Below are positions 2,313 to 26,751 of a DNA stretch of 34,287 bases, piece by piece. Location: NCBI GenBank assembly GCA_038222365.1, contig JBBRHQ010000001.1:1-34287 (forward strand), read 5' to 3'. A model generated the notes under the pieces. It was not told where the DNA came from, made no database searches, and was given only the letters and a program-made list of their open reading frames with translations. The position numbers were made by a program, and so were the translations under genes. The stretch is from Solirubrobacterales bacterium. GTDB lineage: Bacteria; Actinomycetota; Thermoleophilia; Solirubrobacterales; 70-9. Each line of letters begins with the position of its first letter. Position 1 is the first letter of the stretch.

Positions 2313-3545
2313 ATGTCACCGGATGAGCCGTCAAGTGAGGTCGGTGTCAAACGTCCGTACGGTGCAGGCTCCCTGTCGGTGCGCCGCGCCGCGACGGGTC
2401 GGGAGGTCTGGTACGGGCAATGGTGGGTTGGACGGAAGCACCTCAAACGCAGGCTGGGGCTGAAGCGGCCAGTCGGCACGCGGGAAGGCCTGACCAGATC
2501 CCAGGCTGAGCGCGAGCTCCGTCGCCTGATCCAGAGCGAGAGCCCGGTGGCGGAGGCGGGTTCGTCCCTAACGGTTGAGGATGCCGGCTCCCGCCTCCTC
2601 CGGCAGCTGGCGGGCGCCGGGCGAAAGAAGTCCACGCTGGAGGGGTATGAGTCGGCGCTCCGGGTCCATCTGGTGCCCTTCTTCTGTGAAAGGGGGCTGG
2701 ATCGGATCAGCCGGGATGACGTCGAGGCGTTCGCGTCACGCGTGTCCTCGGGGCGCTCCGCAAAGAGCGTGCAGAACTACGTCGGCCTCCTGCATTCGAT
2801 CTTTGAGTTCGCGATCGCCCGAGGCTGGGCTTCCTCGAATCCGTGCAAGCGGGCACTGAGGCCGCAAGCGATCGAGGCCGATCCGGACATCCGATTCCTC
2901 GATCAGCCAGAGCTCGAGTCGCTGCTGGGCGCGGTCCCAGATCCTAAATCCCCGATCGGGAGGCTCAGCAAGGCGCTCTACCTCACGGCGGCGATGACCG
3001 GGCTGCGCCAGGGCGAGCTCTTGGCCCTGCGCTGGCGCGATATTGATTGGTCGGCGGGCAGAATCCGGGTGCGGCGCAACTTCGTTCGTGGCGTATACGG
3101 AACGCCGAAGTCCAAGCGCTCTTCAAGATCGGTGCCGCTGGCCGGTCGGGTCGCCGAGGCGCTTGCCCACCACTTCGATTGCTCTGTCTACAAGACTGAC
3201 GACGACCTCGTCTTCGGGCACCCCGAATCTGGCAAGCCGCTCGATCGCTCCAGGCTGCTGAAGCGCTACAAGGCGTCGCTCAGGCGGGCGGGGGTGCGCG
3301 ACGTTCGCTTCCACGATTTGCGCCACACCTTCGGCACACGCTGCGCGGCGGCCGGCGTTCCTTTGCGGACGATTCAGGAGTGGATGGGCCACCGTGACTT
3401 TAAGACGACGCTGATCTACGCCGATTACGCGCCTAGCGAGCGAGAGGCCGAGATGATCGAGCAGGCTTTCAACCGCGCGGAGGGGCGAGGCGGAGGAGAG
3501 GGTTCCTCCGAGGATCCGGCCGAGCAGACTGGCGTTATTCGTTAA
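2313..3545 (+). CDS. int: Tyrosine site-specific recombinase (phage-type integrase)
   Basis: The C-terminal catalytic region reads ...LTAAMTGLRQGELLALRWRDID...FHDLRHTFGTRCAAAGVPLRTIQEWMGHRDFKTTLIYADY, giving the R..HxxR..Y signature. The N-terminal SAM-like domain reads YESALRVHLVPFF. ATG 2313, TAA 3543-3545. Confidence 0.92.
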   Translation: MSPDEPSSEVGVKRPYGAGSLSVRRAATGREVWYGQWWVGRKHLKRRLGLKRPVGTREGLTRSQAERELRRLIQSESPVAEAGSSLTVEDAGSRLLRQLAGAGRKKSTLEGYESALRVHLVPFFCERGLDRISRDDVEAFASRVSSGRSAKSVQNYVGLLHSIFEFAIARGWASSNPCKRALRPQAIEADPDIRFLDQPELESLLGAVPDPKSPIGRLSKALYLTAAMTGLRQGELLALRWRDIDWSAGRIRVRRNFVRGVYGTPKSKRSSRSVPLAGRVAEALAHHFDCSVYKTDDDLVFGHPESGKPLDRSRLLKRYKASLRRAGVRDVRFHDLRHTFGTRCAAAGVPLRTIQEWMGHRDFKTTLIYADYAPSEREAEMIEQAFNRAEGRGGGEGSSEDPAEQTGVIR

Positions 3546-3589: not shown

Positions 3590-4339
3590 GTGGGTAAACC
3601 AGGCCAAAACCCAAAGCGCAAACGCGAAAAGAGCTCCCATGCCGGGAGTGCCTCTGCTCGCATCCGCCAGCGGGTGAGAGCTGGCGGAGAGCGCTACTGG
3701 CGCCATGAGGACTTCCCCGCTCTGCCGACGGCAGCCGTGGCCATGACCTTGTCGAGGCTGGTCAGCGAAGGGGAGCTGCAGCGGGTGCGCAAGGGCCTCT
3801 ACTATCGACCCCGGCAGACCCGCTTCGGTCAAAGCATTCCGGTGGCGAGCGCCGCGGTGGCCCAGAGTCTGCGTACGCCCGTTCATCCGGCCGGGCTGAC
3901 CGCCTCCAACGCTCTGGGCTTCACGACCCAAAACCCAGCCCGCCTGGAGTACGCAACGCCGGCGAGTGACCCGCCGACGTCGCTTGCCGATGCGATCGTC
4001 TACACGCGCCGCCCAGCCGCCCGCGAGGGTCTCAGCGCCGAAGATGGCGCGCTGCTGGAGTTTCTACGCGAGCGGGGGCAAAGCAGCGATCTGTCCCCCG
4101 CCCAAACTCTTGATCGTTTGCGCCGGCTGCTCTCCGAGCCGGGTCGTTTCGCGCGGCTGGTGCGGGCGGCAGAGAAGGAACCGGCCCGGGTGCGGGCGAT
4201 GCTCGGTGCCCTCGGGGAAGAGCTGGGCGGCGATCCCAAGCTGCTGCGCAAGCTACGCCAGAGCCTCAGCCCGCTTTCCCGGTATGAGTTCGGGAAGCTC
4301 CGCGGGCTTGTCCATGCCCAAGCGTGGCAGGCGAAGTGA
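3590..4339 (+). CDS. AbiEi-like antitoxin / transcriptional regulator (type IV TA)
   Basis: N-terminal winged-helix-like LSRLVSEGELQRVRKGLYY is the AbiEi_4-type motif. Its TGA stop at 4337-4339 overlaps an in-frame GTG of abiEii at 4336 (GTGA). 249 aa. Confidence 0.65.
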   Translation: MGKPGQNPKRKREKSSHAGSASARIRQRVRAGGERYWRHEDFPALPTAAVAMTLSRLVSEGELQRVRKGLYYRPRQTRFGQSIPVASAAVAQSLRTPVHPAGLTASNALGFTTQNPARLEYATPASDPPTSLADAIVYTRRPAAREGLSAEDGALLEFLRERGQSSDLSPAQTLDRLRRLLSEPGRFARLVRAAEKEPARVRAMLGALGEELGGDPKLLRKLRQSLSPLSRYEFGKLRGLVHAQAWQAK

Positions 4340-5289
4340 ACCTGCACGAGGCGGCGGAGTTCCAGGATGCGCTGCTCGCCACGGCCCAGGACCTCGACCT
4401 GGATGAGCGTTTCGTCGAGAAGGACTACTACCTGACCGAGGTCCTAAGGGTCGTCGTTGGGACCCACCCGGACCGGGCGATCCTCAAAGGCGGCACCAGC
4501 CTTACCAAGGGTTGGCAGCTGATCGACCGCTTCTCGGAGGACATCGACCTCTTCGTCGACCCTGAGGCTTGGACTCCGCCGCTCGGCAAGAATGGTGTCG
4601 ATCGCGAGCTCAAGTGCCTTCGCGATGCAATCGCTGCCCACCCAGCGCTCAGCTACGTGGAGGGTGAGGGCAACACAATCGGGGGCTTCGGTCGGGAGGA
4701 CTCCTTCAAATACGACTCGCTCTTCCAGGAGTTGCCTGGCCTGCGCAGCGCCATCCTGTTGGAGCCTGGGGTGCAGAGCGGCCGGCAGCCTACCGAGGCC
4801 GTCCAGGTCTCATCGATGGTGGGCGAATACCTCCGCGGGCATAGTGGGAGCGACCTCGCCGACGACCTGGAGCCGTTCGAGATGACCCTTCTGCATTTCC
4901 GGCGCACATTCGTCGAGAAGCTGTTCATCGTCCATGGCAAGGTCGAGCGTCTGCACACGGAAGGGCACCCACTTGGCCGCGACGCACGCCACTACGCGGA
5001 TCTCTACGCACTGGCCGGTCGCGCTGAGGTTGTGGAGATGCTCCGCACCTCGGAGTACGACGAAATCAAGGATGACTACGACCAGCTCAGCCGGCGGTTC
5101 TACCCGACGAGCTACAGGTCGCCGCCAGAGCTCAGCTTCGTGGACAGCGATGCCCTCACACTTCCCGCGGATCTTCGGGTCCAGATAGAGGTTGACTACG
5201 AGGCGGAGTGTCGTCGCCTCTTCCCGGGCCCCTATCCCTCGCTCGATGAGGTCGTCGAACGGCTCGGAACGCTGCGGGCTCAGCTATAG
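4324..5289 (+). CDS. abiEii: AbiEii/AbiGii-family nucleotidyltransferase toxin (DUF1814)
   Basis: EKDYYLTEVLRVVVGTHPDRAILKGGTSLTKGWQLIDRFSEDIDLFVD matches the nucleotidyltransferase G[ST] ... DxD core of AbiEii. The start is either GTG 4324 or the in-frame GTG 4336. Confidence 0.85.
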   Translation: MAGEVNLHEAAEFQDALLATAQDLDLDERFVEKDYYLTEVLRVVVGTHPDRAILKGGTSLTKGWQLIDRFSEDIDLFVDPEAWTPPLGKNGVDRELKCLRDAIAAHPALSYVEGEGNTIGGFGREDSFKYDSLFQELPGLRSAILLEPGVQSGRQPTEAVQVSSMVGEYLRGHSGSDLADDLEPFEMTLLHFRRTFVEKLFIVHGKVERLHTEGHPLGRDARHYADLYALAGRAEVVEMLRTSEYDEIKDDYDQLSRRFYPTSYRSPPELSFVDSDALTLPADLRVQIEVDYEAECRRLFPGPYPSLDEVVERLGTLRAQL

Positions 5290-7451: not shown

Positions 7452-7496
7452 TTGTGGTCCAGGCGGTCGCGGGTTCGAGTCCCGTCGCTCACCTTG
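7452..7496 (+). repeat. tRNA-His(GTG) 3' fragment, copy A (tRNA positions 32-73 plus TT); att-like site
   Basis: TTGTGGT (anticodon loop with U33, GTG and G37) - CCAGG - CGGTC - GCGGG TTCGAGT CCCGT (T arm) - CGCTCAC (acceptor 3' strand) - C73, the His-specific discriminator. No matching GTGAGCG 5' strand or D arm lies upstream. It is identical to the copies at 10405 and 12999. Confidence 0.85.
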
Positions 7497-7614
7497 AGGC
7501 ATTCCCCTCTACAACGGGGAATCTCCCGACCTGGCTCTCGACTGCGACCTGGGCTGCTACCAACTTGGTCCCAATCTGTAGCTGCCGGGTAGCCAGGAGG
7601 CCGATGGCGAGATG
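7497..7614 (+). repeat. Conserved ~120-nt module following the tRNA-His fragment, copy 1
   Basis: About 85% identical by eye to 10450-10568. It contains the hairpin ATTCCCC-tctacaac-GGGGAAT, the TTGGTCCCAAT motif, GCTACC/GGTAGC pairing options, and AGGAGGCCGATGGCGAGATG. Confidence 0.8.
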
Positions 7615-7765
7615 GGGCGCATCGGCACTAACCTGGCCACATTCCCGCCAGCCACAGGCCAGCTTCGGGCTCTGGCGCTGAGAGAATTCCACGGGCTGGG
7701 TAGTTCTGCCGGTTCCATAGCTCCTACTCAGCCGGGCCAGAGCAAAGCGCGATACTGGGCAGGCG

Positions 7766-8182
7766 ATGTCGCAGGAGAACGTGGAAATCGTGCGACGGCT
7801 CTACGCGGAGTGGGAGGACGAGGCATTCAAGGGCCTCGATGACGAGGCATACGACCTTCTCGATCTCGATCCTGAGATTGAATGGGACGCGTCCAGACGG
7901 ACCTTCGATCCAGGCGTGTACCACGGCTATGACGGCATCAGGGCGATGTCGGCTGGACTGCGCGAGGTCTGGGAGTCCGGGCGTATCGAGCCGCTGGAGT
8001 TCATTCAGGCAGGGGAAAAAGTCGTCGTCCCAGTCCGGCTCGTGATGGTCAGCAGGACAGATCGCCAAGCGGTCACCGCCAACGCCGCACACATATGGAC
8101 GTTGCGAGACGGAAGGGTTATTCGGCATTGCGGGTTCCAAACCAAAGCCGAGGCCCTCGAAGCCGCAGGGCTGTCGGAGTAG
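7766..8182 (+). CDS. NTF2/SnoaL-like protein, array cassette 1
   Basis: 138 aa. N-terminus MSQENVEIVRRLY, C-terminus KAEALEAAGLSE. Size and helix-then-beta pattern are typical of SnoaL_2/DUF4440-type NTF2 folds. Confidence 0.8.
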   Translation: MSQENVEIVRRLYAEWEDEAFKGLDDEAYDLLDLDPEIEWDASRRTFDPGVYHGYDGIRAMSAGLREVWESGRIEPLEFIQAGEKVVVPVRLVMVSRTDRQAVTANAAHIWTLRDGRVIRHCGFQTKAEALEAAGLSE

Positions 8183-8185
8183 GCG

Positions 8186-8629
8186 ATGTCGAAGGAGAAC
8201 ATCGAGCAGGAGAACGTGAGGGTTGTGCTGGAGGGGTTCGCCCGCTACAACGCCGATGAGGGAGGCCTGGAGTGGCGGCTGCGGGCGCTGCCCAAGGTGA
8301 TGGCGACGTATTGGCAGCCCGACGGGGAGTACCACACCGATTCGAGGGACCCCGATTCGACGATCCATCGCGGGATCGATGCCATCACGCGGCACTTCGC
8401 CACCTGGTTCGAGGCATACCCCGATCTCAAGGTCGAGCCGGTGGAGGCGAAGGCAAGCGCTGACAAGGTATTCGTCTGGCTGCGCTTCAGCGGTCATGGA
8501 GCGGGAAGCAACGTCCCGATTGAGATGGAACTGGCGCACGTCATCACCCTGCGGGACCGCAAGTGGGCGCGAACAGTTGAGTACGCGGACAAGGCCCAAG
8601 CCCTCGAAGCCGCCGGGCTGTCGGAGTAG
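8186..8629 (+). CDS. NTF2/SnoaL-like protein, array cassette 2
   Basis: 147 aa. MSKENIEQENVRVVLEGF carries a duplicated N-terminal motif. C-terminus KAQALEAAGLSE. It starts 3 nt after the cassette 1 stop. Confidence 0.8.
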   Translation: MSKENIEQENVRVVLEGFARYNADEGGLEWRLRALPKVMATYWQPDGEYHTDSRDPDSTIHRGIDAITRHFATWFEAYPDLKVEPVEAKASADKVFVWLRFSGHGAGSNVPIEMELAHVITLRDRKWARTVEYADKAQALEAAGLSE

Positions 8630-8632
8630 GCG

Positions 8633-9034
8633 ATGTCGCAGGAGAACGTGGAGATCGTGCGGCGCATGAACGAGGCCTTCAACCGCGGCGATATGGATGC
8701 CGTGGCCGAGTTGCTCGACCTGCAAATCGTCTACTTCGAGCACGGCTCGAATGTCGATACGCCCTCCGTTCTCCATGGCCGATCTGCCCTGTTGGAAGCA
8801 CTGGGCCAGTTCATGGAGGCCTTTGATGACCTCGTGGGGGATATCGAGGAGCTTGTGGATGCTGGTGACAGGGTTGTTACGACGACCCACTGGCGGGGTA
8901 CCGGCGCAGGCAGCGGCGCAGCGGCTGACCTGCGGGAGGTGATCTCCTGGAAGGTCGAGAACGGAGTCGCCGTAGAGGGTCGCGTGTTCGCGGATCGCCA
9001 GGAGGCCCTCGAAGCCGCCGGGCTTTTGGAGTAG
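8633..9034 (+). CDS. NTF2/SnoaL-like protein, array cassette 3
   Basis: 133 aa. MSQENVEIVRRMNEAFNRGDMDAVAELLD is the canonical SnoaL-like N-terminal helix. C-terminus RQEALEAAGLLE. Confidence 0.85.
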   Translation: MSQENVEIVRRMNEAFNRGDMDAVAELLDLQIVYFEHGSNVDTPSVLHGRSALLEALGQFMEAFDDLVGDIEELVDAGDRVVTTTHWRGTGAGSGAAADLREVISWKVENGVAVEGRVFADRQEALEAAGLLE

Positions 9035-9037
9035 GCG

Positions 9038-9430
9038 ATGTCGCAGGAGAACATTGACTTGCTTCGTCCTGGCTATGAACAGTTCGCAAGGGGCGACTTC
9101 AGCGCGTTCTCGGAGTTGCCCGATGACTTCGAGCTTGTTCTCGCCCCTGAGATGCCCGATGCGGGTAGCTATCTCGGTGAGGCAGCCCGACGCTGGCTGA
9201 TGTCGTGGGTGGAGTCTTTTGATCGGCTCACGATGGAGGCGATCGAGTTCATCGACGCTGGTGACCAGGTGCTCATCGAGATGATTCAGCGAGGCTGGCT
9301 TGCGGGGAGTGATGAAGTCGTCGAGACGCGTACCTGGGCGGTAAATACCTTCCGTGAGGGTGCCGTTCTGCGAATCGAGTTGTTTCAAGCCCGGGGAAAA
9401 GCCCTCGAAGCCGCCGGGCTTGAGGAGTAG
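9038..9430 (+). CDS. NTF2/SnoaL-like protein, array cassette 4
   Basis: 130 aa. MSQENIDLLRPGYEQFARGDFSAF ... RGKALEAAGLEE. Confidence 0.8.
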   Translation: MSQENIDLLRPGYEQFARGDFSAFSELPDDFELVLAPEMPDAGSYLGEAARRWLMSWVESFDRLTMEAIEFIDAGDQVLIEMIQRGWLAGSDEVVETRTWAVNTFREGAVLRIELFQARGKALEAAGLEE

Positions 9431-9433
9431 ACG

Positions 9434-9832
9434 ATGTCACGGGAGGACGCCGACAGAATCCGGCGGGCCTATGAGGTTTGGAATGAGTCGGGTCCAGCAG
9501 CGGTGACGGTTCGGTTCTGGGCTGAGGATGCCGTCTATCGCGAGGGGCCGGGCTGGCCCAATGCCGGTGTCTACGAAGGGCGTGCAGCCGCCCTTGAACG
9601 CATGCAAAGTCTGATCGAGCTGATGGGGTCGATCGAGGTGTGCCTCGATGAGTTGATCGATGTCGGAGATGGCCGCTTGGTTGCCTGCACGAGCATGGTC
9701 GGGGAGGGTGCGAACGCGCCCTACACTCAGTCCTTCGCCGTCGTGCATCGCATGCGGGACGGCCTCATCGTCGAGGCCGACTACTACCTCGACCGCGCCC
9801 AGGCCCTCGAAGCTGTCGGGCTTGAGGAATAG
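9434..9832 (+). CDS. NTF2/SnoaL-like protein, array cassette 5
   Basis: 132 aa. MSREDADRIRRAYEVWNESG ... RAQALEAVGLEE. Confidence 0.8.
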   Translation: MSREDADRIRRAYEVWNESGPAAVTVRFWAEDAVYREGPGWPNAGVYEGRAAALERMQSLIELMGSIEVCLDELIDVGDGRLVACTSMVGEGANAPYTQSFAVVHRMRDGLIVEADYYLDRAQALEAVGLEE

Positions 9833-9835
9833 GCG

Positions 9836-10240
9836 ATGTCGCAGGAGAACGTGAAGGTGGTGCGGCGGTTCTGCGAACGGGACGACCAGACCAGCCTGGA
9901 TTCGCTGATGGCGATCCTGCACCCGGATATCGAATGGGTCCCGGTGGAATCAGACCCGGAGTACTCCGTACACCGCGGACACGACGACGTTCGCGCCTGG
10001 TTGACGTCTTGGGCCGAGTCGTTTCCGGACCTGCGTTGGGAACTCGATCGCATCCTCGATGCGGGGAGCGATCTCGTGGTCACGTTCGTACGTATGGCGG
10101 GCCGCTCTGACGCGACTGGTATCGACCTGGAAACCCCGTCCTACGCGGTGGTATTCACGCTCCGGGGCGAGAAGATCGCGCGGATCCATGAATACGTCGA
10201 CAGCCAGGAGGCTCTCCAAGCCGCAGGGCTGTCGGAGTAG
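9836..10240 (+). CDS. NTF2/SnoaL-like protein, array cassette 6
   Basis: 134 aa. MSQENVKVVRRF ... SQEALQAAGLSE. Confidence 0.8.
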   Translation: MSQENVKVVRRFCERDDQTSLDSLMAILHPDIEWVPVESDPEYSVHRGHDDVRAWLTSWAESFPDLRWELDRILDAGSDLVVTFVRMAGRSDATGIDLETPSYAVVFTLRGEKIARIHEYVDSQEALQAAGLSE

Positions 10241-10243
10241 GCG

Positions 10244-10375
10244 ATGTCGCAGGAGAACGTGGAGACAATCCGGCGGGACTACTCGGCGAGCCCATCCCGT
10301 GGTAGCAACCGAGGTAACTCAATGAGCAAATCTCAGCCGAACTCAGAGCACCTCAGCGAAGGTCACCGTACCTGA
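10244..10375 (+). pseudogene. Vestigial seventh NTF2 cassette (only the conserved 5' end is retained)
   Basis: ATGTCGCAGGAGAACGTGGAGACAATCCGGCGG (MSQENVETIRR) follows the standard TAG-GCG junction. The sequence then diverges and stops after 43 codons, just before tRNA-His fragment B. Confidence 0.7.
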
Positions 10376-10404
10376 GCGACGGCTACTGATCCCAATCTCT
10401 GAGG

Positions 10405-10449
10405 TTGTGGTCCAGGCGGTCGCGGGTTCGAGTCCCGTCGCTCACCTTC
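10405..10449 (+). repeat. tRNA-His(GTG) 3' fragment, copy B; att-like site
   Basis: The 42-mer is identical to copy A and is followed by TT. The upstream sequence has no D arm or anticodon-stem 5' strand. Confidence 0.85.
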
Positions 10450-10568
10450 AGTGATTCCCTCTACAACGGGGAATCTCCCCCACCTGCGTTCTCGACGCGA
10501 CCTCGGGCTGCTACCAATTTGGTCCCAATCCGTAGCTGCCAGGTAGCCAGGAGGCCGATGGCGAGATG
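10450..10568 (+). repeat. Conserved ~120-nt module following the tRNA-His fragment, copy 2
   Basis: Homologous to 7497-7614 with the same hairpin, TTGGTCCCAAT motif and AGGAGGCCGATGGCGAGATG. Small indels shift every reading frame, which argues for a non-coding function. Confidence 0.8.
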
Positions 10569-10849
10569 TGGCACAGGGCCGGGATCGGCGAACGAGAGGA
10601 ACGCAACTGATGACTGAGAAGGAGCTTCCAGATAGCGTCAGGGCCGAGGTCCAGAGAATCCTGGACCGAGAAGCTCGACGGCTCCTGGACGAGCAGCTCG
10701 CGGAGCAGAACAGGGCGAGCGAAAGGCCCTGCAACCACCGGTGAATAGCCGCACACGCCAGCGGCCCGTTACCTAAGATTCAGGCACACAGACCGGGGCC
10801 TGCGACCGCGTGAACGGCCCAGGCCCCATGACCATCAGGAGGTACCCCG

Positions 10850-11056
10850 ATGGCACGCAGGAGCGTAACCCCCAGCTCGCCGCTGGCCCCGCCAGCACCC
10901 AGGGAGCCGGTCGAGCTGGAGTTCGTCCAGGAGCCCTACCGGAGCCGCATTCGGCGCGAAGCTAAGCGGCAGGGAGGCGTCGAGAGCATCGCTGTCGGAG
11001 GCGAGGCGATCCTCGTCAGGTACAGCAGCGGCGCTTCTGCCGTGTACGGCGGGTGA
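10850..11056 (+). CDS. Hypothetical protein (68 aa)
   Basis: A good SD (AGGAGG) lies 7 nt upstream of the ATG. No family recognised. Confidence 0.4.
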   Translation: MARRSVTPSSPLAPPAPREPVELEFVQEPYRSRIRREAKRQGGVESIAVGGEAILVRYSSGASAVYGG

Positions 11057-11113
11057 TCCAGTTGAACCGACGCTCTGAGAGCCGTTCTGAGGCTTCCGAA
11101 ATATTTCCCCGGA

Positions 11114-11550
11114 GTGATATCCCTTCCGGATAGCGGGGTCCCGCTGGTCACCACGAACTGGCGCACGGCGAACCAGCTCCACGAGACCGGGTCGCGGTCC
11201 TTCGTACCGGTGCGAATCAGCCTGGGTCGGCTCCGCGATTTGGGCTGGACGGAGGCGGTCCATGCATCCGGGAGCTCGTCCCGAGCCGGCGCATCTTCCG
11301 GGCCCCGCCAGGGGAGTTCGACTCGCGCTATCTGGAGCAGCTCGAGAAACACGGCGTTGAGAAGATCGGCGAGCGGATCATCGAGGTCCACGCCGAGTAT
11401 CGGCTCCCGCTCGCGCTGCTCTGCTTCGAGGACGTTCACGCGGGCCAGGACTGCCACCGTCGCCTGTTCGCCAAGTGGTGGGAGATGAACACCGGCCAGA
11501 CGGTCCCGGAACTGGGGCCGTACGTCCTGCGCGGGGGCCCTATTCAGTAG
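11114..11550 (+). pseudogene. DUF488-like gene interrupted by a frameshift near 11250-11265
   Basis: The N-terminal part reads in one frame (PLVTTNWRTANQLHETGSRSFVPVRISLGR). The C-terminal part reads in another (IRELVPSRRIFRAPPGEFDSRYLEQLEKHGVEKIGERIIEVHAEYRLPLALLCFEDVHAGQDCHRRLFAKWWE...) and ends at TAG 11548-11550. LLCFE...CHR is the DUF488 signature. Confidence 0.55.
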
Positions 11551-11626
11551 GTTCCGACGATGACGAGAGGGACGGTGCGTATGCCGGCGGTGCCAGCCCT
11601 GGAGCTCAGAAGGAGCTAAAGCCTCA

Positions 11627-12307
11627 ATGGGCCACATCTTCCTCTTCTCGCTGGTCGCCGCAGCGAACGCCACCCTGCTCGCCGCTGTGACGGCGATGCT
11701 CTTCCTGCCGAACCCGAAGCGCCTCCTGCTCGGCTACCTACTGGGCGGCCTGCTCGTCAGCCTCACCATCGGCTTCGTGATCGTCTTCGTGGTGCACCAG
11801 TCGGGCGCGACCAGTACGACGCAGAACAGCATCAGCCCAGCGATGGACATCGCGCTCGGGCTGATCTTGTTGGTGGTCGCCTACGTGCCCCGGAGTGAGC
11901 GCATGGAGCACAGGCGGGAGCGGAAGAGGAAGGAGAAGGAAGGGGTTGAGAAAGGCCCGTCCAGGGTCGAGCGGATCCTGGGCAGAGGCTCCGCCGGCGT
12001 CACGTTTGTGGTCGGCGTGGTTCTCACCCTCCCCGGCGTCTCCTACCTCGCCGCACTCCACGAGCTCGACAATCTGAACTACGGGACAGTCCCGACCATC
12101 CTGGTCATCCTCGGCTTTAACGCGATACTTCTGCTGCTGCTTGAGATCCCGTTGATCGGATATGTGTTAGCCCCGGAGCGGACCGTGGTGGAGGCCCAGC
12201 GCTTCAGGGCCTGGCTTAGCCGGAATGGCCTCAGGGCAGGGATTTACGTCGCAGCGGGACTGGGGGTGCTGCTGATCGTCCGGGGCGTGATCGAGTTCCT
12301 CACATAG
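11627..12307 (+). CDS. Integral membrane protein, GAP/Sap (DUF2910)-like
   Basis: 226 aa with several hydrophobic helices. The N-terminus FSLVAAANATLLAAVTAMLFLPNPKRLLLGYLLGGLLVSL and a central basic loop (RRERKRKEKEG) resemble the actinobacterial GAP family. The family call is tentative. Confidence 0.55.
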   Translation: MGHIFLFSLVAAANATLLAAVTAMLFLPNPKRLLLGYLLGGLLVSLTIGFVIVFVVHQSGATSTTQNSISPAMDIALGLILLVVAYVPRSERMEHRRERKRKEKEGVEKGPSRVERILGRGSAGVTFVVGVVLTLPGVSYLAALHELDNLNYGTVPTILVILGFNAILLLLLEIPLIGYVLAPERTVVEAQRFRAWLSRNGLRAGIYVAAGLGVLLIVRGVIEFLT

Positions 12308-12635
12308 ACGCCACCCCCACGTGAGTCGGATAGGGTCGGCTTGACCCAACCGAAGGAGGGCATCGCCGTCTAACCCGCCTGGCACCGCTAACGGCCGGAC
12401 TGCCGGAGTAGGCCGCGCGTTCTGGTCAGGCGGCAGGTTCTGCGGCGCGGCGAGGCCAAGCCGGGACCTAACAAGCGGCGGCGAGAGGTCGCCGCCTGAG
12501 GCGACGCAAGCAGGAAGTCCTTCCGATCCCGCTACGACACTTGAGCAGCAGCTAGTAACTCGGCTTGCGGAGAACGCTCCCCGTAAGCCATGCCACCGAG
12601 GGCCGGAGCAAGAGCCTCGCCGCGACCCGAGCCTC

Positions 12636-12884
12636 GTGGACCACAATCACCAGCCGACCCGGGACGTGGAGAACAACCCGGTCGTGCTCGACGCCAAGAT
12701 CGAGAAGCTCGCTGACCTGGGCGAGCTGCATGCGAAGGTCCAGCACCTGATCCGCCTCGAAAAATCGGTGGAGGCGAAGATCCGCGACTACATCGAGGCC
12801 CACGGCCCCGAGCTGCTCCAGGAGTTCAATGAGCTGGTCGAGCGGGCGTTCAGCTCCCTGCCCTCAGCGGCAGAGCATCGTTAG
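12636..12884 (+). CDS. Hypothetical small coiled-coil protein (82 aa)
   Basis: GTG start and a charged helical sequence. It ends 9 nt before the tandem TTGGTC(A/C)CAAT motif. No family recognised. Confidence 0.35.
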   Translation: MDHNHQPTRDVENNPVVLDAKIEKLADLGELHAKVQHLIRLEKSVEAKIRDYIEAHGPELLQEFNELVERAFSSLPSAAEHR

Positions 12885-12998
12885 CGGGGTGCTTGGTCAC
12901 AATTTGGTCCCAATCCGTAGCGCACACCCCTCAACGGCACCCCCCAAAGGACGCCTGGATCGAACTCAACGCAACAAGACGGCACCCACCCCGTCTAA

Positions 12999-13044
12999 TT
13001 GTGGTCCAGGCGGTCGCGGGTTCGAGTCCCGTCGCTCACCTTCA
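12999..13044 (+). repeat. tRNA-His(GTG) 3' fragment, copy C; att-like site and probable outer boundary of the accreted islands
   Basis: The 42-mer is identical to copies A and B and is followed by TTCA. The A/B downstream module is absent here, and the flank differs and leads into backbone-like genes. Confidence 0.85.
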
Positions 13045-13848: not shown

Positions 13849-14241
13849 CTACTCCTGTAGTCCGGCGGCTTCGAGGGCCTCGGCTCGGCCGACGATCGTC
13901 CTCAACTCGATCAGCCTCTCGCCTGCAAATGTGAACAGCCAAGCCAGCGGTTGGTCGAACTCCACTCCGCTGGTGCGGCCACGGGCGTGCACCGCCCCGA
14001 AGGCGAGGAGCCGACCCTCGGACGCATCCCTGAACTGATCGACCGAGATGCTCCAATCCTCGAACTGATCATCGATCTCGGCCATCCACCGCCGCAACCC
14101 GTCGTAGCCGCGATACTCCGCATTGGTCATCGCCGAATGGACCACGAAGTCGGGATGGGCGATCTCCGCATCAATCTCCCTCTCGCCCGCATTCCAGCGC
14201 TCAAAGGTGCGGCGCATCAGATCTTCGGTCTCCTGCGACAT
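13849..14241 (-). CDS. NTF2/SnoaL-like protein, lone paralog of the array family
   Basis: MSQETEDLMRRTFERWNAG ... RAEALEAAGLQE. It begins ATGTCGCAGGAGAC like the array cassettes and ends TAG TAG. Confidence 0.8.
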   Translation of the reverse strand: MSQETEDLMRRTFERWNAGEREIDAEIAHPDFVVHSAMTNAEYRGYDGLRRWMAEIDDQFEDWSISVDQFRDASEGRLLAFGAVHARGRTSGVEFDQPLAWLFTFAGERLIELRTIVGRAEALEAAGLQE

Positions 14242-15886: not shown

Positions 15887-15949
15887 GTGCAGGTGACGAA
15901 GGGCCATGGGGGTGAGCGGGTGGGGTCGAAACAGGCCCCCGAGAGGTGA
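15887..15949 (+). promoter_or_regulatory. Possible 20-codon leader ORF translationally coupled to the first polysaccharide-locus gene
   Basis: GGAGG (15876-15880) lies 6 nt upstream of GTG 15887. The ORF reads VQVTKGHGGERVGSKQAPER and its TGA (15947-15949) overlaps GTG 15946 of the downstream gene, which has no well-spaced SD of its own. Confidence 0.25.
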
Positions 15950-17526
15950 GCGGCAACAGGCTGAGACCAGCAGAACCGGTCTTGGCCGTGGTCGGGCTCG
16001 GATATTGGGGCCCCAACCTGCTTCGGATCCTGATCGAGATGGGCGGGGTTCGGGTCAAGTGGGCGTGCGACCAGGACCCCGAGCGGCTGGAGCGCTTTGG
16101 GCGCCGCTACCCGACGGTGAACTTCACCGCCGAGTACGGCCAGGTGCTGGATGACCCGGAGGTGGACGGGGTGCTGATCGCCACTCCGGTCGGCACGCAC
16201 GCCGAGCTCGGGCGCCAGAGTCTGGAGGCCGGCAAGCACACCTTCGTCGAGAAGCCCCTGGCGGGGTCGGTCCAGACGGCAGATGCCCTGATCGCCCTCG
16301 CGCATGACGTCGACCGCGTCCTGATGCCCGGCCACACCTTCATCTACAGCCCACCCGTCCGGGCGACCAAGGACCTCCTCGCGAGGGGTGAGCTGGGCGA
16401 CATCTACTTCATCTCCTCGAGCAGGGTCAACCTAGGACTGCATCAGCGCGACGTCAGCGTCGTCTGGGACCTCGGGCCGCATGACTTCTCGATCCTCCTC
16501 TACTGGCTGGGCGAGCTGCCGAGGAGCGTTCGGGCCGTCGGCAGAGCCTCGATCGTCGACGGCATCCCCGACGTCGCATTCATCGCGCTGGAGTTCACCT
16601 CGGGGATCGTCGCCAACATCGAGCTGAGCTGGCTGGCTCCGAGCAAGCTGCGCCGAACGGTGATCGTCGGCAGCGAGAAGATGGTCGTCTACGACGACGG
16701 CAGCCCGGAGCCGATCAAGCTCTACGACCAGGGGGTCGTCTATCGCGATCCGGAGACCTTCGGGGAGTACCACCTCTCCTACAGGACCGGCGACGTCCTC
16801 GCCCCCAAGCTCGAGACCCACGAGCCGCTGGGAGCCGAGCTTGAGGCCTTCGCGACAGCGATCCGATCCGGAGAGCGGATGGAGGCCGAGACCTCGCTCG
16901 CCCGGGACGTCGTCTCCCTGACCGAGGCGGCGGATCGCTCGCTCCGAGAGGGCGGGGCCGAGGTGCTGATCGAGAGGCGCCGGGTATTCAGTCGCGCCCT
17001 GGCGGCAAGTGGTCGGGCGCTTCGGGAGGTGGATCGTCCGGCCCCCCGCGACTACGCGTCGGCGCCGGAGGAAGAGGAGCGCCGCGTGCAGGCGGTGCTT
17101 CTGGTCGACGGCGCCGACCCCCCGGATCTCGAGTTGAGGACTCTTCTCGAGGAGACCCTCCCCTTCGAGAGGGTGATCGAGGCCGAGCGCGCTTCCGCCG
17201 CGATCGTCGCGGCCGACGCGGAGGGAGGCTGCCTCAGCCTGATCCTGGTCGCCTGCGACTCGGATGCAATCGACGCGGACGAGGTCCTGGCCGGGCTCTC
17301 CGAGGCCTGCCCGGACGTGCCGATCCTGCTCTGGTCCAACTCCCTGGAGTCGCGCGACGTCCGCTGCGCGCTCGATGCCGGGATGCGCGGACAGGTGGTC
17401 CATTCGAGCGATCGCGCCGGGCTGAAGGCGGCGATTGCCGCGGTTGCCGATCAGGGTGGAAGGTCGTCCAACGGCCTGCGGCAGCCCGGAGATGAAGCTC
17501 GCCGGCGCGTACTGGTGGTCAGGTGA
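15946..17526 (+). CDS. Gfo/Idh/MocA-family sugar oxidoreductase fused to a C-terminal receiver-like (CheY-like) domain
   Basis: The N-terminal Rossmann region LAVVGLGYWGPNLLR...EKPLA and the dimerisation region are typical of WbpB-type UDP-sugar dehydrogenases. The last ~140 aa (AVLLVDGADPP...LSLILVACDSDAIDADEV...VPILLWSNS...ALDAGMRGQVVHS) follow the REC beta-alpha pattern but lack the conserved Lys. Confidence 0.8.
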   Translation: MSGNRLRPAEPVLAVVGLGYWGPNLLRILIEMGGVRVKWACDQDPERLERFGRRYPTVNFTAEYGQVLDDPEVDGVLIATPVGTHAELGRQSLEAGKHTFVEKPLAGSVQTADALIALAHDVDRVLMPGHTFIYSPPVRATKDLLARGELGDIYFISSSRVNLGLHQRDVSVVWDLGPHDFSILLYWLGELPRSVRAVGRASIVDGIPDVAFIALEFTSGIVANIELSWLAPSKLRRTVIVGSEKMVVYDDGSPEPIKLYDQGVVYRDPETFGEYHLSYRTGDVLAPKLETHEPLGAELEAFATAIRSGERMEAETSLARDVVSLTEAADRSLREGGAEVLIERRRVFSRALAASGRALREVDRPAPRDYASAPEEEERRVQAVLLVDGADPPDLELRTLLEETLPFERVIEAERASAAIVAADAEGGCLSLILVACDSDAIDADEVLAGLSEACPDVPILLWSNSLESRDVRCALDAGMRGQVVHSSDRAGLKAAIAAVADQGGRSSNGLRQPGDEARRRVLVVR

Positions 17527-19049
17527 GCACCCTGGATCAGATCGCGGTCCGCTCGCCTGCCGAGGCCGGCGCCCTGCCGGCGTCCTCGGTTCCCCGAGCG
17601 CGGGATTACATCGCCAGGCGCGCCCTGGCCATCTGTGACGCCGCCGCGATCGCCGCGGCGATGGCGATCGCCCTTCTCCTGGTCACGCCGTCGCCGCAGG
17701 CCGACCTCGACTTCGCCTTCAGCCTTCTCGCCCTGCCGTTCCTGATCGCCCTATTCAAGGTCTACCGCCTCTATGACCGCGACTCGAAGCGGGTCAGCCA
17801 CTCGACCGTCGACGACGTTCCGTGGCTCTTTCACGCTCTGCTGGTCGGCTCGATCGGGCTCTGGGCGTACTCGAAGATCGCCTGGCCCGACCGGATCCAG
17901 CTGGCCCAGGGAGTCACGCTGTTCATTGCCGCGCTGATCGGGATCCTCGTCGCCAGGGCATCGGTGCGCATCGCGATCACCCGATGGAGCCCGCGCGAGC
18001 GGGTGCTGCTGGTCGGCGACGGGCCGGCGGCCCGCTTGCTGGTGAGAAAGATGCGGCTCCATCCCGAGTACGGCCTTGACGCGATCGGCTACCTGGGGTC
18101 CGTGGATGGCTCGGGCCAACCGATCGAAGAAGCCGACACCGACCACGAGGCTCTCCACCGGATCGCCAGGTTTCACTCCGACCTCGAGCGCCAGCAGATT
18201 GACGGAATTCCCTGTCTCGGGGGCACGGAATCCGGGCTCGAGACGGCCCACCGGCTCTCGGGCGTCGACCGGGTGATTCTGCTCCAGGACCTCGACGACG
18301 ACGTCCTGCTCGGGATCGCTCGGCGCTGCTCGGATCTCGAGATCAAGATCAGCCTGGTCCCCAACCTGGTCGAGATTCTCGGCTCCTCGGTCGAGGTCGA
18401 CGACCTCGAGGGAGTGACGCTGCTGGGGATCAATCCCCCCATGCTGACCCGCTCCTCTCGGGTGGTCAAACGGGGGCTCGACATCCTCTTGGCGGCCGGA
18501 GCACTGCTGCTTGCGCTCCCGGTGATGGCGGTCGCGGCGCTGGCGATCAAGCTGACCTCGAGGGGCCCGATCTTCTTCGTGCAGGAGCGGATCGGCCGCG
18601 GCGAGCGTCGCTTCCGCCTCTACAAGTTCAGGACGATGGTCGAGGACGCGGAGGCGCGCGAGGCGCAGCTGCGCGCCGAGAGCGTTCACCCCGCCTGGCT
18701 CCTGCTCGAGCGCGATCCGCGGGTCACCGGGGTCGGCCGAATCCTGCGCTCCACCAGCATCGACGAGCTGCCCCAACTGGTCAATGTGCTGAAGGGCGAC
18801 ATGAGCCTGGTGGGCCCGCGGCCGATGCCCCCGGCAGTGGACGAGCAGATCGACGGATGGGGGCGCCGCCGGCTCGACCTGACGCCCGGCATCACCGGGC
18901 TGTGGCAGGTGCTCGGGCGGACCAGCATCCCCTTCGAGGAGATGATCGGCCTCGATTACCTCTACGTGACGAACTGGTCGCTGTGGCAGGACATCCGGCT
19001 CCTCGTACGCACGCTCCCGGCAATCGCCGGGCGCAGGGGCGCCAACTGA
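17523..19049 (+). CDS. Polyprenyl-phosphate glycosyl-1-phosphate transferase (WbaP/EpsB-type bacterial sugar transferase), priming enzyme
   Basis: N-terminal TM helices and a central linker are followed by the C-terminal catalytic domain [54 protein letters not shown]...[21 protein letters not shown]. Confidence 0.9.
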
Positions 19050-19068
19050 CCAAAAAGGAGGCAGCCTG

Positions 19069-20061
19069 ATGAGGATCCCATCGAAGCGATTCGTGGTCAC
19101 CGGCGGCGCCGGTTTCATCGGCAGCCACGTAGTCGACCAACTGGTCCAGAAGGGCGCCGAGGTGGTCGCGATCGACGACCTCAGCGTCGGTCGGCCCGAG
19201 AACCTCTCCGCAGCCCTGGCGGCGGGGGCGGAGCTGCAGGTCGGCGACATCCTCGACAGGTCGTTCATGCAGCGCGGCCTCTCGGGCGCCGACATCGTCA
19301 TCCACATGGCCTGCGACAACCTCCGCGCGTCGCTCGCCGATCCGGAGCGAACCCACGAGATCAACGCCACCGGGACGCTGGTCGCCGCGCTCGCGGCGGT
19401 TCGCGCCGGGGTCAAGCGCTTTGCCTACGTTTCCTCTTCGGAGGCCTACGGATCGGCCGTCGACGGGCTGATGAGCGAGTCGCATCCGCTGCGGCCGACC
19501 ACCGTCTATGGGGCGAGCAAGGCCGCGGGGGAGCTCAATGCCCAGGCATGCATGCGCACCTACGGCCTGCCGGTGATCGTGATCCGGCCGTTCAACTCAT
19601 ACGGGCCGCGCGAGCACGCGGAGGGCACCAGCGCCGAGGTGATTCCGAAGTTCGTCTCGCGGATCACGGCCGGCGAGCGGCCGGTGATCTTCGGCGACGG
19701 AACCCAGACCCGTGACTTCACCTGGGTCGAGGACACGGCGGCGGGAATCGTCGCGGCGGCGGCTCGCGACGAGCTGGTGGGCGAGGCCGTGAACATCGCC
19801 TACGGCAGCGGGGTGAGCATCCGGCAGGTCTGCGAGATGCTGCTCGAGATCCTCGCCGCGGAGCATCTGGAGCCCGAGTACGTCGACGGGCGCCCTGGGG
19901 ACGTGATGCACCATCGCGCCGACACCACCAAGGCGTATGAGGAGATCGGCTTCTGCGCCGGGATCCCGATCCGCGAGGGCCTCGAGCGCTACATCGCTTG
20001 GGCCATGGAGCAGGGCGATCGGGAGCCGGCGGGCGAGCCTCAGCCGGTCCGCAACTGGTAG
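19069..20061 (+). CDS. NAD-dependent epimerase/dehydratase (extended SDR)
   Basis: VVTGGAGFIGSHVV (GxxGxxG) and YGASKAAGE (YxxxK). AAGGAGG lies upstream of the ATG. Confidence 0.9.
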   Translation: MRIPSKRFVVTGGAGFIGSHVVDQLVQKGAEVVAIDDLSVGRPENLSAALAAGAELQVGDILDRSFMQRGLSGADIVIHMACDNLRASLADPERTHEINATGTLVAALAAVRAGVKRFAYVSSSEAYGSAVDGLMSESHPLRPTTVYGASKAAGELNAQACMRTYGLPVIVIRPFNSYGPREHAEGTSAEVIPKFVSRITAGERPVIFGDGTQTRDFTWVEDTAAGIVAAAARDELVGEAVNIAYGSGVSIRQVCEMLLEILAAEHLEPEYVDGRPGDVMHHRADTTKAYEEIGFCAGIPIREGLERYIAWAMEQGDREPAGEPQPVRNW

Positions 20062-20065
20062 GGGA

Positions 20066-21025
20066 ATGAGCTTCGGCAACGACATCGGCCCGGGGCACCG
20101 AATGGTGATCCTGGGCGCCGATGGCTTCATCGGCAGCGCCGTGGTCCGAGCGGCTCTGGAGGCCGAGGCGAAGGTCGTCGCCCTCTGCGCGAAGCCACCA
20201 TGGCGGCTCGGTGATCTCGAGGACGACCCCGCCCTCGAGCTCGCCGACCTGGGCGCCTGGTGGGAGCCGGGTCGGGCTGAGTCTCTCGAGCCGGTGATCG
20301 CCGGCGCGGCCGCCGTCGTCCTGCTCGCCTACCGGCCGCCCCCGGATCGGCGCTCGGCCCACCGCCACGAATACGAGGTGAATACCGCCGGGGCGGCGGC
20401 GATCGGCGAGGTCGCCGCCCGCGCAAAGGTCCGGCTGGTGTTCACCAGTTCCGCCGACGTCTACGGCCTGTGGCGTGAGGAGCCGGTGACCGAGGAGACG
20501 CCGCCGCGCCCGCAGACGCCGTATTCGGAGGCGAAGCTCGAGGCCGAGCGTCTGCTCTCGGCGACCGCCGTCCCGGGTTCCGTCGTCAGCCTGCGGCTTG
20601 CCACGGTCTTCGGCCCGGGCGAGGACGGTCCGCGCGCGATCCCCTCCTTCATCCGGGCATTCCTTCGCTCCGAGGAGCCGGTTCTCCACGGCGACGGCAC
20701 GGACGTCCGCGACTACGTCCACGTGGACGATGTCGCCGGCGCGATCCTCAGCGCCTGCCGGCTGCCATCTCCCCCGGCGACCGTGAACATCGGCTCGGGG
20801 GTCGGCCGCAGCACCGCGGAGGTGCATCGCGCGGTGGCCGCGGCGATGGAGGTCGAGCCGCACGCCAGGCTGGAGCCGAGCCCGCGGCCGCCCACGCGGC
20901 TGATCGTGGACTCCGGGCTCGCGGCCCTTCAGCTCGGTTTCGCCCCGCGGCGGGAGTTCGAGGCCGCCCTTCGTGAGGAGGTGCGCTGGTTGCGGAACCG
21001 GCGCGAGGCGCAGGTGGCCGCATGA
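20066..21025 (+). CDS. NAD-dependent epimerase/dehydratase family protein (second SDR)
   Basis: ILGADGFIGSAVV and YSEAKLEAE. ATG 20066 is the start that does not overlap the previous gene; the ORF-track start at 19937 does overlap it. Confidence 0.8.
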   Translation: MSFGNDIGPGHRMVILGADGFIGSAVVRAALEAEAKVVALCAKPPWRLGDLEDDPALELADLGAWWEPGRAESLEPVIAGAAAVVLLAYRPPPDRRSAHRHEYEVNTAGAAAIGEVAARAKVRLVFTSSADVYGLWREEPVTEETPPRPQTPYSEAKLEAERLLSATAVPGSVVSLRLATVFGPGEDGPRAIPSFIRAFLRSEEPVLHGDGTDVRDYVHVDDVAGAILSACRLPSPPATVNIGSGVGRSTAEVHRAVAAAMEVEPHARLEPSPRPPTRLIVDSGLAALQLGFAPRREFEAALREEVRWLRNRREAQVAA

Positions 21026-25599: not shown

Positions 25600-25747
25600 G
25601 GCTCTTGGGGGCCGGCGCCGAGCCCGGCTACTTGCATCCCTGCGCCCATGGGGGCTCAGGGGCGACGCCGATCCTACCGATAGAGAGAATTGAGTACGGG
25701 AATTAGCCGAAATCGGTTACAGCCGTGCAAAACAGGCTGACTCGCCC

Positions 25748-26731: not shown

Positions 26732-26745
26732 GCGGCGATGGGGAC
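26692..26745 (+). repeat. 18-bp tandem repeat, three units (GGAGGCGGCGATGGGGAC)
   Basis: Units lie at 26692-26709, 26710-26727 and 26728-26745. Units 1-2 encode EAAMGT twice at the sulfotransferase C-terminus. In unit 3 a GAG-to-TAG difference forms the stop codon. Confidence 0.9.
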
Positions 26746-26751
26746 GGGCCG

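Follow-up and report, generated by a model that had tools for sequence, protein, structure and literature searches.

A stretch of 34,287 nucleotides (nt) from a Solirubrobacterales bacterium (assembly GCA_038222365.1, contig JBBRHQ010000001.1, forward strand), referred to here as the window, contains six complete SnoaL_2/NTF2 genes and a truncated seventh. They are arranged head to tail on the plus strand and share one reading frame. The array is probably a translationally coupled operon of modular NTF2 cassettes that are exchanged by recombination at a junction module of about 48 nt, named J here, and carried on an integrase-less tRNA-His islet. This junction is almost identical in hundreds of family genes of soil Actinobacteria (Thermoleophilia).

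The cassette array and its family

The cassettes start at 7766, 8186, 8633, 9038, 9434, 9836 and 10244, giving spacings of 420, 447, 405, 396, 402 and 408 nt. The array of six plus one vestigial cassette, with these starts and spacings, had been described in an initial annotation made from the letters alone and was confirmed by the open reading frame (ORF) map. Neighbouring cassettes are separated by TAG, a 3-base spacer (GCG; ACG once) and ATG, followed by TCG. Pairwise protein identity between the cassettes was 25-35%. The coordinates are listed in Table 1. A 554 amino acid (aa) antisense ORF (7724-9388, minus strand) lies across four cassettes and is most likely an artefact of the high G+C content and of in-frame TAG read as CTA.

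With cassette 3 as query, a protein search gave more than 5,700 clusters, and of the 120 best most start with MSQENVEIVRR and have EALEAAGLSE at the C-terminus or close to it. The search was word-indexed and favours matches with these terminal motifs. Loci were therefore fetched and family genes found in them with a hidden Markov model (HMM), and conservation was re-measured on the HMM-detected genes. The comparison set consisted of 78 loci from GTDB species genomes, nearly all of them Solirubrobacterales or Thermoleophilaceae metagenome-assembled genomes (MAGs), and one 334-kb contig; loci are given by L numbers. In the 80 sequences scanned 449 family genes were found. Array sizes were 1 (100 cases), 2 (54), 3 (25), 4 (17), 5 (5), 6 (5), 7 (2), and 8, 9 and 12 (one each). 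Adjacent family genes were exactly 3 nt apart in 143 of about 240 pairs. From the size distribution and the 3-nt gaps it follows that the window array is a large yet typical case of a recurrent architecture. The family occurs mainly in Thermoleophilia; the longest array, of 12 cassettes, was in L016, an Ilumatobacteraceae MAG. The motif strings were in no paper found, the same was true of SnoaL arrays in Solirubrobacter, and the literature yielded nothing on the family or motif.

Some variants of the architecture were seen. Seven family ORFs extend 134-142 residues beyond the model as two-domain fusions, in which the TAG is lost and two in-frame cassettes are joined. A 2-nt spacer in fifteen junctions breaks the common frame. 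A hairpin, (G)CCGCTTTGSAYGRAAAGCGG(C), lies just past array ends (L044 ~12620, L056 ~4320, L063 ~1700) and also about 20 nt before array leaders (L002, L012, L025, L027, L054, L063). It possibly acts as a terminator or belongs to a further repeat family.

Conservation of the junction module

The consensus of J over 139 junctions of other genomes was GCC CTC GAA GCC GCC GGG CTG TCG GAG TAG GCG ATG TCG CAG GAG AAC. About 60 nt had been described as conserved at the nucleotide level; strong conservation covers a shorter stretch of ~48 nt, from -33 to +15 around the ATG. Most third codon positions of J were 78-97% conserved. The codons concerned are not those preferred in the rest of the same genes: GAA for Glu was used in 91% at the junction compared to 21% in the cores, GGG for Gly in 78% compared to 25%, and TCG for Ser in 95% compared to 26%. 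The stop codon was TAG in 98%, and the spacer bases G-C-G were each 92-97% conserved. At positions with the same amino acid in two genomes, codons agreed in 77% of cases for the termini and 46% for the cores, and comparison inside the window gave 73% and 38%. Variable J codons were shared in 30% within an array, 16% between loci and 13% within a subtype across loci; they are not tied to the subtype of the cassette.

The pattern was equally strong where a downstream cassette is lacking, in 124 terminal or singleton genes. A vestigial GCG ATG TCG CAG followed 24 of these 124 and resembles the seventh ORF of the window and the stub behind its singleton family member. That singleton (13849-14241) lies just beyond the last att-like repeat copy on the opposite strand and has its own GATAAT-type leader. 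Its stop is followed by TAG CG ATG TCG CAT, which is what remains of the start of a next cassette, now lost. About 30 solo copies of the left half of J, 33 nt long, were also found outside recognisable cassettes. These have a sharp 5' edge, and some stand directly 3' of the stop codon of an unrelated ORF, others ahead of an array.

Ordinary paralog expansion, with termini kept for folding or oligomerisation and for Shine-Dalgarno coupling and with array differences due to duplication and loss, is an unlikely explanation. GGAG-TAG-GCG-ATG is ideal for coupling, and the N-terminal 'QENVxIV' motif is also present in the distant Burkholderia NTF2 protein 3fgy, as this explanation would have it. 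However, constraint on the protein leaves the disfavoured third-position codons, the near-universal TAG and the GCG spacer unexplained, and neither the genes without a downstream cassette nor the solo left halves fit it. Preservation for folding and translational coupling only, put forward earlier as the null alternative, is insufficient for synonymous sites, stop and spacer conserved across ~78 genomes, in terminal, singleton and solo copies too.

A primary role of J as an RNA element, with recombination as a by-product, is given about the same low probability. J could then, for example, be an intercistronic site for processing or stability, mask the Shine-Dalgarno sequence in a hairpin, or be recognised by a regulatory RNA or protein. 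J can be drawn as a 12-bp interrupted hairpin with the LEAA codons on one side and, on the other, GGAG together with the TAG G and the spacer. J also stands at every cistron boundary, and its solo copies are often just past the stop codons of unrelated genes. Against this, the fold was no more stable than dinucleotide shuffles (69-mers, z -0.08 to -1.1) or synonymously recoded versions of its peptide (mean z -0.26; control core segments +0.16). Mutual information in J gave no pairing signal, and no covariation was detectable. Rfam returned nothing at the gathering threshold over the whole window, with chance-level matches only around the att-like repeat and one junction. RNA structure was rejected on these grounds as the main cause of codon conservation in J. 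The conserved feature of J is its sequence and not a structure.

Cassette gain, loss and exchange between genomes

Between loci L014 and L015, which are syntenic with 94-97% nt identity, the arrays differ by a single cassette. L014 has a chimeric junction that combines the two L015 junctions, and the crossover falls within the invariant GAAGCCCTCGAAGCCGCCGGGCT (23-nt core). The flanks of L050 and L065 are 91-94% identical and the two arrays have no cassette in common (at most 38% aa identity). The left flanks stay near-identical as far as the stop codon of the upstream gene, and on the right similarity returns exactly at the left half of J of the last cassette. Cassettes 81-95% identical in aa sequence between genomes were found amid unrelated neighbours. 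A tract shared by L016 and L042 at 95% nt identity runs from the leader motif through one cassette to 11 nt into the next. In ten more non-syntenic pairs (at least 81% aa identity) similarity was gone within 33 nt of the ORF ends.

The conserved flanks had been proposed as sites of cassette shuffling. The one-cassette indel with its crossover in the J core, the content swapped between near-identical flanks and the cassettes shared among unrelated neighbours all agree with this. Related genomes differ in cassette number (L014/L015) and in cassette content (L050/L065). The comparison of loci shows turnover at the level of cassettes, with a crossover in J. Such shuffling of cassette neighbours between genomes speaks against paralog expansion, while the syntenic loci L025 and L053 retain the same two cassettes, as paralog expansion would have it. 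L016 (Ilumatobacteraceae) is from an Acidimicrobiia bin and L042 from an actinomycete bin; their 95% identical cassette represents either cross-class transfer or a binning error.

An integron-like site-specific system was considered, in which a recombinase recognises the invariant J core, cassettes move as circles and solo copies of J are empty landing sites. The crossover inside the 23-nt core would fit, as would the sharp 5' edge of the solo left halves, some of them before arrays, and cassettes that lack promoters and all follow one leader in the same orientation. A relative of the cassette proteins, Bal32a, also comes from an integron cassette. The position of the crossover is equally compatible with homologous recombination, however. 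J has no attC-like architecture and its spacer is only 3 nt. A dedicated recombinase did not recur near arrays, with Phage_integrase in 3 and Resolvase in 2 of the 150 neighbouring ORFs. This explanation is rated improbable, somewhat below paralog expansion and the RNA element.

Leader and expression signals

A conserved GCGAGATACTGCGCGGGCG-ATG precedes first-in-array and singleton genes, and the window copy is at 7747-7765. It was found ahead of 150 such genes in other loci with a per-base consensus of ~70-99%. Only first genes have the GATACT leader ahead of them; internal genes follow J and have just the GGAG contributed by the Ser-Glu codons of the previous cassette, six bases upstream of their ATG. 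The leader is predicted to be the promoter of a near-leaderless transcript, and the array would be read from it as a series of translationally coupled cistrons.

Upstream of the leader (7700-7746) a motif, TAGCTCCTACTCAGCC...GGCCAGAGC, is common to the window, L042 (~9950-10000) and L017. The CCTACTC within it is the complement of the junction GAGTAGG. The motif may serve a regulator, or it may be what is left of an inverted junction.

Cassette proteins

The assignment of the cassettes to the NTF2/SnoaL_2 family in the initial annotation was upheld by Pfam and by structure prediction for cassette 3. Five of the six matched Pfam SnoaL_2 (PF12680) at 41.7-62.4 bits (cutoff 27). Cassette 4 scored below threshold at 19.3 bits yet aligned end to end with the family. 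The AlphaFold2 model of cassette 3 (pLDDT 91.5) has the alpha+beta NTF2 cone fold, and Foldseek matched it with probability 1.0 and TM 0.7-0.8 to TerC, 3ebt, KSI, IdmH and 1tuh. The last of these is Bal32a, an NTF2-like protein from a soil integron cassette, which is a relative of the cassettes in sequence and fold. All NCBIfam matches were far under cutoff.

In an alignment of 302 full-length cassettes only the termini, Gly48, Gly110 and Val80 were more than 80% conserved, with Gly77, Gly90, Gly94 and Ser93 at 76-79%. The alignment contained no invariant polar core residue or shared catalytic constellation. A constellation of a known SnoaL or limonene-epoxide-hydrolase (LEH) enzyme had been named as evidence for an ordinary paralog family, and it was absent from the 302 cassettes. 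Two features of the termini count against paralog expansion. The C-terminal EALEAAGLSE tail lies outside the part alignable to solved NTF2 structures, and no core position comes near the conservation of the termini.

The cores had been called hypervariable, and this description did not hold. The best match of a cassette in another genome had a median aa identity of 59%, compared to 37% for the best match in its own locus. The closest relatives of the window cassettes in other genomes were 41-80% identical. Cassettes 3, 4 and 2 matched L001 at 64% (L001_7), 57% (L001_1) and 43%, in another order and spread over two arrays. Cassette 5 was 80% identical to L018_6 with a ratio of nonsynonymous to synonymous substitution (dN/dS) of 0.15. 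The median core dN/dS of 23 orthologous pairs was 0.31, which indicates purifying selection and is in keeping with paralog expansion also. The cores are old paralog subtypes and not hypervariable. The cassette proteins are real, under purifying selection, and have variable pockets. As a tentative assignment, they would most likely be a repertoire of small-molecule binders or enzymes.

Partners and defence

NTF2-fold immunity families exist in polymorphic-toxin systems, and a role of the array as a repertoire of immunity, antitoxin or anti-phage proteins had been suggested earlier. The tandem order of small diverse proteins, the mobile context and the adjacent AbiE toxin-antitoxin pair would agree with such a role. 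The 150 ORFs within 3 kb of arrays of at least three cassettes matched 161 Pfam families, none of them recurrent, and no toxin, defence gene or dedicated partner gene recurred among them. The cassettes had no Imm-NTF2 Pfam match at E<=0.1 and no PADLOC or PHROG match. The J pattern had 0 matches in the 2.9 million viral contigs of IMG/VR. The arrays of L001 are set among housekeeping genes, and the AbiE pair of the window is in a different att-bounded segment from the array. The suggestion was not supported by these results and is considered very improbable.

tRNA-linked islets

The density of tRNA genes was 3.8 per 100 kb in the family loci compared to 0.44 in 80 control loci. The family gene was 3' of the adjacent tRNA in 12 of 13 cases, often 26-77 nt away and on the same strand. 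Islets bounded by repeated tRNA 3' ends hold arrays in L058, L078, L002, L043, L047 and L062. In L058 a module of att copy, 7 nt, leader and array recurs four times; its remaining islets hold assorted accessory genes and no integrase. Arrays are associated with tRNA genes and att repeats. The layout of the islets matches what serial integration at one tRNA site would produce, a process known in other systems (bioRxiv 10.1101/2020.12.28.424599). Given the islets elsewhere, the att-bounded array of the window is a recurrent design.

In the window a 44-nt repeat is present in three identical copies, with 0 matches expected in shuffles (repeat families). It corresponds to a tRNA-His(GTG)-like sequence in its 3' half, with the anticodon loop at one end and the discriminator base at the other; the assignment to His was made by eye from the anticodon loop TTGTGGT, the T-arm and the discriminator C. 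ARAGORN and Rfam found no tRNA gene in the window, and the repeats are not tRNA genes. Of the two tRNA-His att-like repeats described at first, the identity and the position around the array were correct, while the repeats are tRNA 3' halves, not genes, and number three. As the window has no intact tRNA, the intact target tRNA-His must be beyond position 1. Downstream of copies 1 and 2 about 130 nt are shared, with 86% identity over an 86-nt block and a 23-nt exact block. The sequence downstream of copy 3 shows no relation to that behind copies 1 and 2, and copy 3 is therefore probably on the chromosomal side.

Motif TTGGTCCCAATCYGTAGC occurs in direct orientation at 7563-7580, 10517-10534 and 12904-12921, with a degenerate copy at ~10385-10402, and is placed about 70 nt inside both ends of att-bounded segments. 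The copies may be arm-type integrase binding sites. The exact motif was absent from the other fetched loci; a partial copy is upstream of the array in L042.

The integrase nearest to the array is 4.2 kb off in a separate att-bounded segment, and the array segment has none. An att-bounded array next to a mobile element with Abi cargo had been reported, and the integrase and AbiE genes do adjoin it. The AbiE pair is cargo of the integrase-bearing element, in another att-bounded segment than the array. An ECF-type sigma factor (1307-1891) and two ORFs with no family match (73-1215 and 1919-2305) are directly upstream of the integrase and may belong to the same element. SnoaL_2 C-terminal domains occur on some ECF sigma factors, and cassette 6 weakly matched models of such factors. 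A third att-bounded segment (10449-12998, copies 2 to 3) contains a small ORF (10568-10744), an SfLAP/Sap-family membrane protein (11627-12307) and an unannotated stretch, with no integrase. The three segments (integrase/AbiE, array, 10449-12998) look like serial accretion at one tRNA-His site.

Past copy 3 a RibD_C gene is found together with the minus-strand singleton of the family; the polysaccharide biosynthesis cluster at 15946-30831 also lies here and is the chromosomal flank. The cluster encodes a GFO/IDH/MocA oxidoreductase with a receiver-like tail, a sugar transferase, an epimerase, GT4 and GT2 glycosyltransferases, a sulfotransferase and a Wzy-like ligase. When metagenomes were scanned with this flanking oxidoreductase to find a close relative of the window, only relatives of 60-70% identity came up. 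Cassette 3 itself was present in the protein collection from this contig only, and the search with the att region gave a match limited to 42 nt of a Pseudarthrobacter plasmid.

Table 1. Coordinates of features of the array, its islet and the adjoining element in the window.
Feature	Position	Strand	Details
Tyrosine integrase of neighbouring element	2313..3545	+	Pfam Phage_integrase 9.1e-31; PHROG integrase 2.9e-73
AbiEi/AbiEii toxin-antitoxin pair	3590..5289	+	Pfam AbiEii 6.5e-23; DUF6088/AbiEi
att-like repeat copy 1	7452..7495	+	44 nt identical in three copies
Element-side arm sequence common to both positions	7496..7621 and 10449..10575	+	contains motif TTGGTCCCAATCYGTAGC
Array leader GCGCGATACTGGGCAGGCG	7747..7765	+	-10-like GATACT 9 nt ahead of ATG
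Cassette 1, 138 aa	7766..8182	+	SnoaL_2 1.9e-10
J between cassettes 1 and 2	8153..8200	+	ALEAAGLSE codons, TAG, GCG, ATG TCG AAG GAG AAC
Cassette 2, 147 aa	8186..8629	+	N-terminal insertion; SnoaL_2 6.1e-14
J between cassettes 2 and 3	8600..8647	+	
Cassette 3, 133 aa	8633..9034	+	SnoaL_2 6.6e-17
J between cassettes 3 and 4	9005..9052	+	
Cassette 4, 130 aa	9038..9430	+	SnoaL_2 19.3 bits, under cutoff
J between cassettes 4 and 5	9401..9448	+	
Cassette 5, 132 aa	9434..9832	+	SnoaL_2 5.1e-12
J between cassettes 5 and 6	9803..9850	+	
Cassette 6, 134 aa	9836..10240	+	SnoaL_2 1.8e-16
J between cassette 6 and vestigial cassette 7	10211..10258	+	
Vestigial cassette 7	10244..10375	+	family-like only over first ~45 nt (~14 codons)
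att-like repeat copy 2	10405..10448	+	44 nt identical
att-like repeat copy 3	12999..13042	+	44 nt identical; 2.6 kb past copy 2
Singleton eighth family member	13849..14241	-	both terminal motifs present; vestigial next-cassette start after stop

Proposed model

In the proposed model each gene would be a modular cassette bounded by J, and the window array a single-frame operon of six anciently diverged NTF2/SnoaL_2 paralogs. J would have two jobs. With the GGAG Shine-Dalgarno sequence, and with stop and start one codon apart, it would couple the translation of a promoterless cassette to that of the preceding one. It would also give cassettes a portable stretch of homology by which they can be lost, gained or swapped, because it is nearly identical in all cassettes and genomes. 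Candidates for the exchange are RecA, replication slippage or a site-specific recombinase. The synonymous conservation of J would reflect selection on sequence, where cassettes with a drifted J stop recombining and are lost in array turnover. J is probably kept by selection on recombination competence and possibly by a binding factor. The array would be the cargo of an integrase-less islet of ~2.9 kb between tRNA-His 3'-half repeats, one of at least three stacked segments. The islet was presumably moved by a tyrosine integrase, such as that at 2313-3545, acting in trans on the tRNA-His repeats.

Several points weigh against this model. The evidence for exchange is all comparative, with no recombination intermediate or within-population heterogeneity observed. 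The comparative loci are nearly all draft MAG contigs in which repeats of ~400 nt may be misassembled. The islet and array of the window were never seen in an alternative state, and a close relative of the window genome was not found. The intact tRNA-His is outside the window. The promoter and translational coupling are predictions from sequence only. A length of 48 nt at ~90% identity is short for efficient RecA recombination, and the explanation of synonymous conservation by homology drive is theoretical. Conservation of the sequence could be accounted for just as well by a factor that binds RNA or DNA in trans.

A further reading is put forward only tentatively. J may be a self-propagating translated recombination element of an integrase-less cassette system, mainly of Thermoleophilia, with solo copies of J as landing pads and tRNA mini-islets that ferry arrays. 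Jointly with this, and with the same reserve, the cassette system with J may be previously undescribed, with NTF2 genes circulating within and between species via J.

If the model is true, a large, poorly studied soil lineage (Solirubrobacterales/Thermoleophilia) holds a shuffleable repertoire of small NTF2-fold proteins, and its boundary element codes for protein, couples translation and is a substrate of recombination, all in one. It would then be a rare case of synonymous sites and a stop codon conserved across species through gene-cassette dynamics, and a second, independent route to integron-like modularity, parallel in function with a different molecular logic. The 48-nt motif, the one-cassette indels and the tRNA-linked arrays give a handle on accessory-gene turnover in uncultured Actinobacteria. 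Family members number in the thousands and share their ends, and gene callers and assemblers may mis-join them.

Comparison with known systems

The array shares with integrons its promoterless single-gene cassettes, in one orientation and head to tail behind one promoter (here a predicted one). In both, cassette content turns over much faster than the flanks and identical cassettes are present in different genomes. The NTF2-like protein Bal32a (1tuh) from a soil integron cassette is related to the array proteins. The attC sites of integrons are imperfect palindromes of 57-141 nt. Here the intergenic distance is 3 nt with no attC, and J is without R''/L''-L'/R' architecture. The window array has no adjacent IntI-type integrase. 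J is translated and supplies 9 residues at the C-terminal end and 5 at the N-terminal end of each protein. All cassettes are of one protein family, and recombination is probably homology-driven.

In orphan CdiA-CT/CdiI and Rhs-CT/immunity arrays and in silent pilS/vls loci, a coding motif at the boundary gives the homology for module swaps, and truncated vestigial module starts are found at array ends. The cassettes described here are complete ORFs, not silent or displaced fragments, and have no toxin partner. Whole genes are added and removed, whereas in those systems a domain of one expressed gene is replaced.

The cassette proteins have the fold and the Pfam family of the structural-genomics SnoaL_2/NTF2 proteins (3ec9, 3fgy, 3ebt, 3grd) and of SnoaL, KSI and LEH enzymes. 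They differ in that they have no invariant catalytic residue, they carry the family-specific EALEAAGLSE C-terminal tail, and they are encoded in arrays and not as single genes of pathway clusters.

Accretion at tRNA genes, as in CIME-type remnants and tycheposon islands (bioRxiv 10.1101/2020.12.28.424599), likewise leaves repeated partial-tRNA att copies that mark successive integrations, and integrase-less cargo segments beside an integrase-bearing element. Of the features that define tRNA-integrated islands, repeats of the tRNA 3' part are present, while the array segment lacks an integrase of its own and the window lacks the intact target tRNA. The islets differ in being very small (1.2-3 kb), and in several genomes they open with a promoter-plus-NTF2-array module 26-77 nt past the att copy or tRNA.

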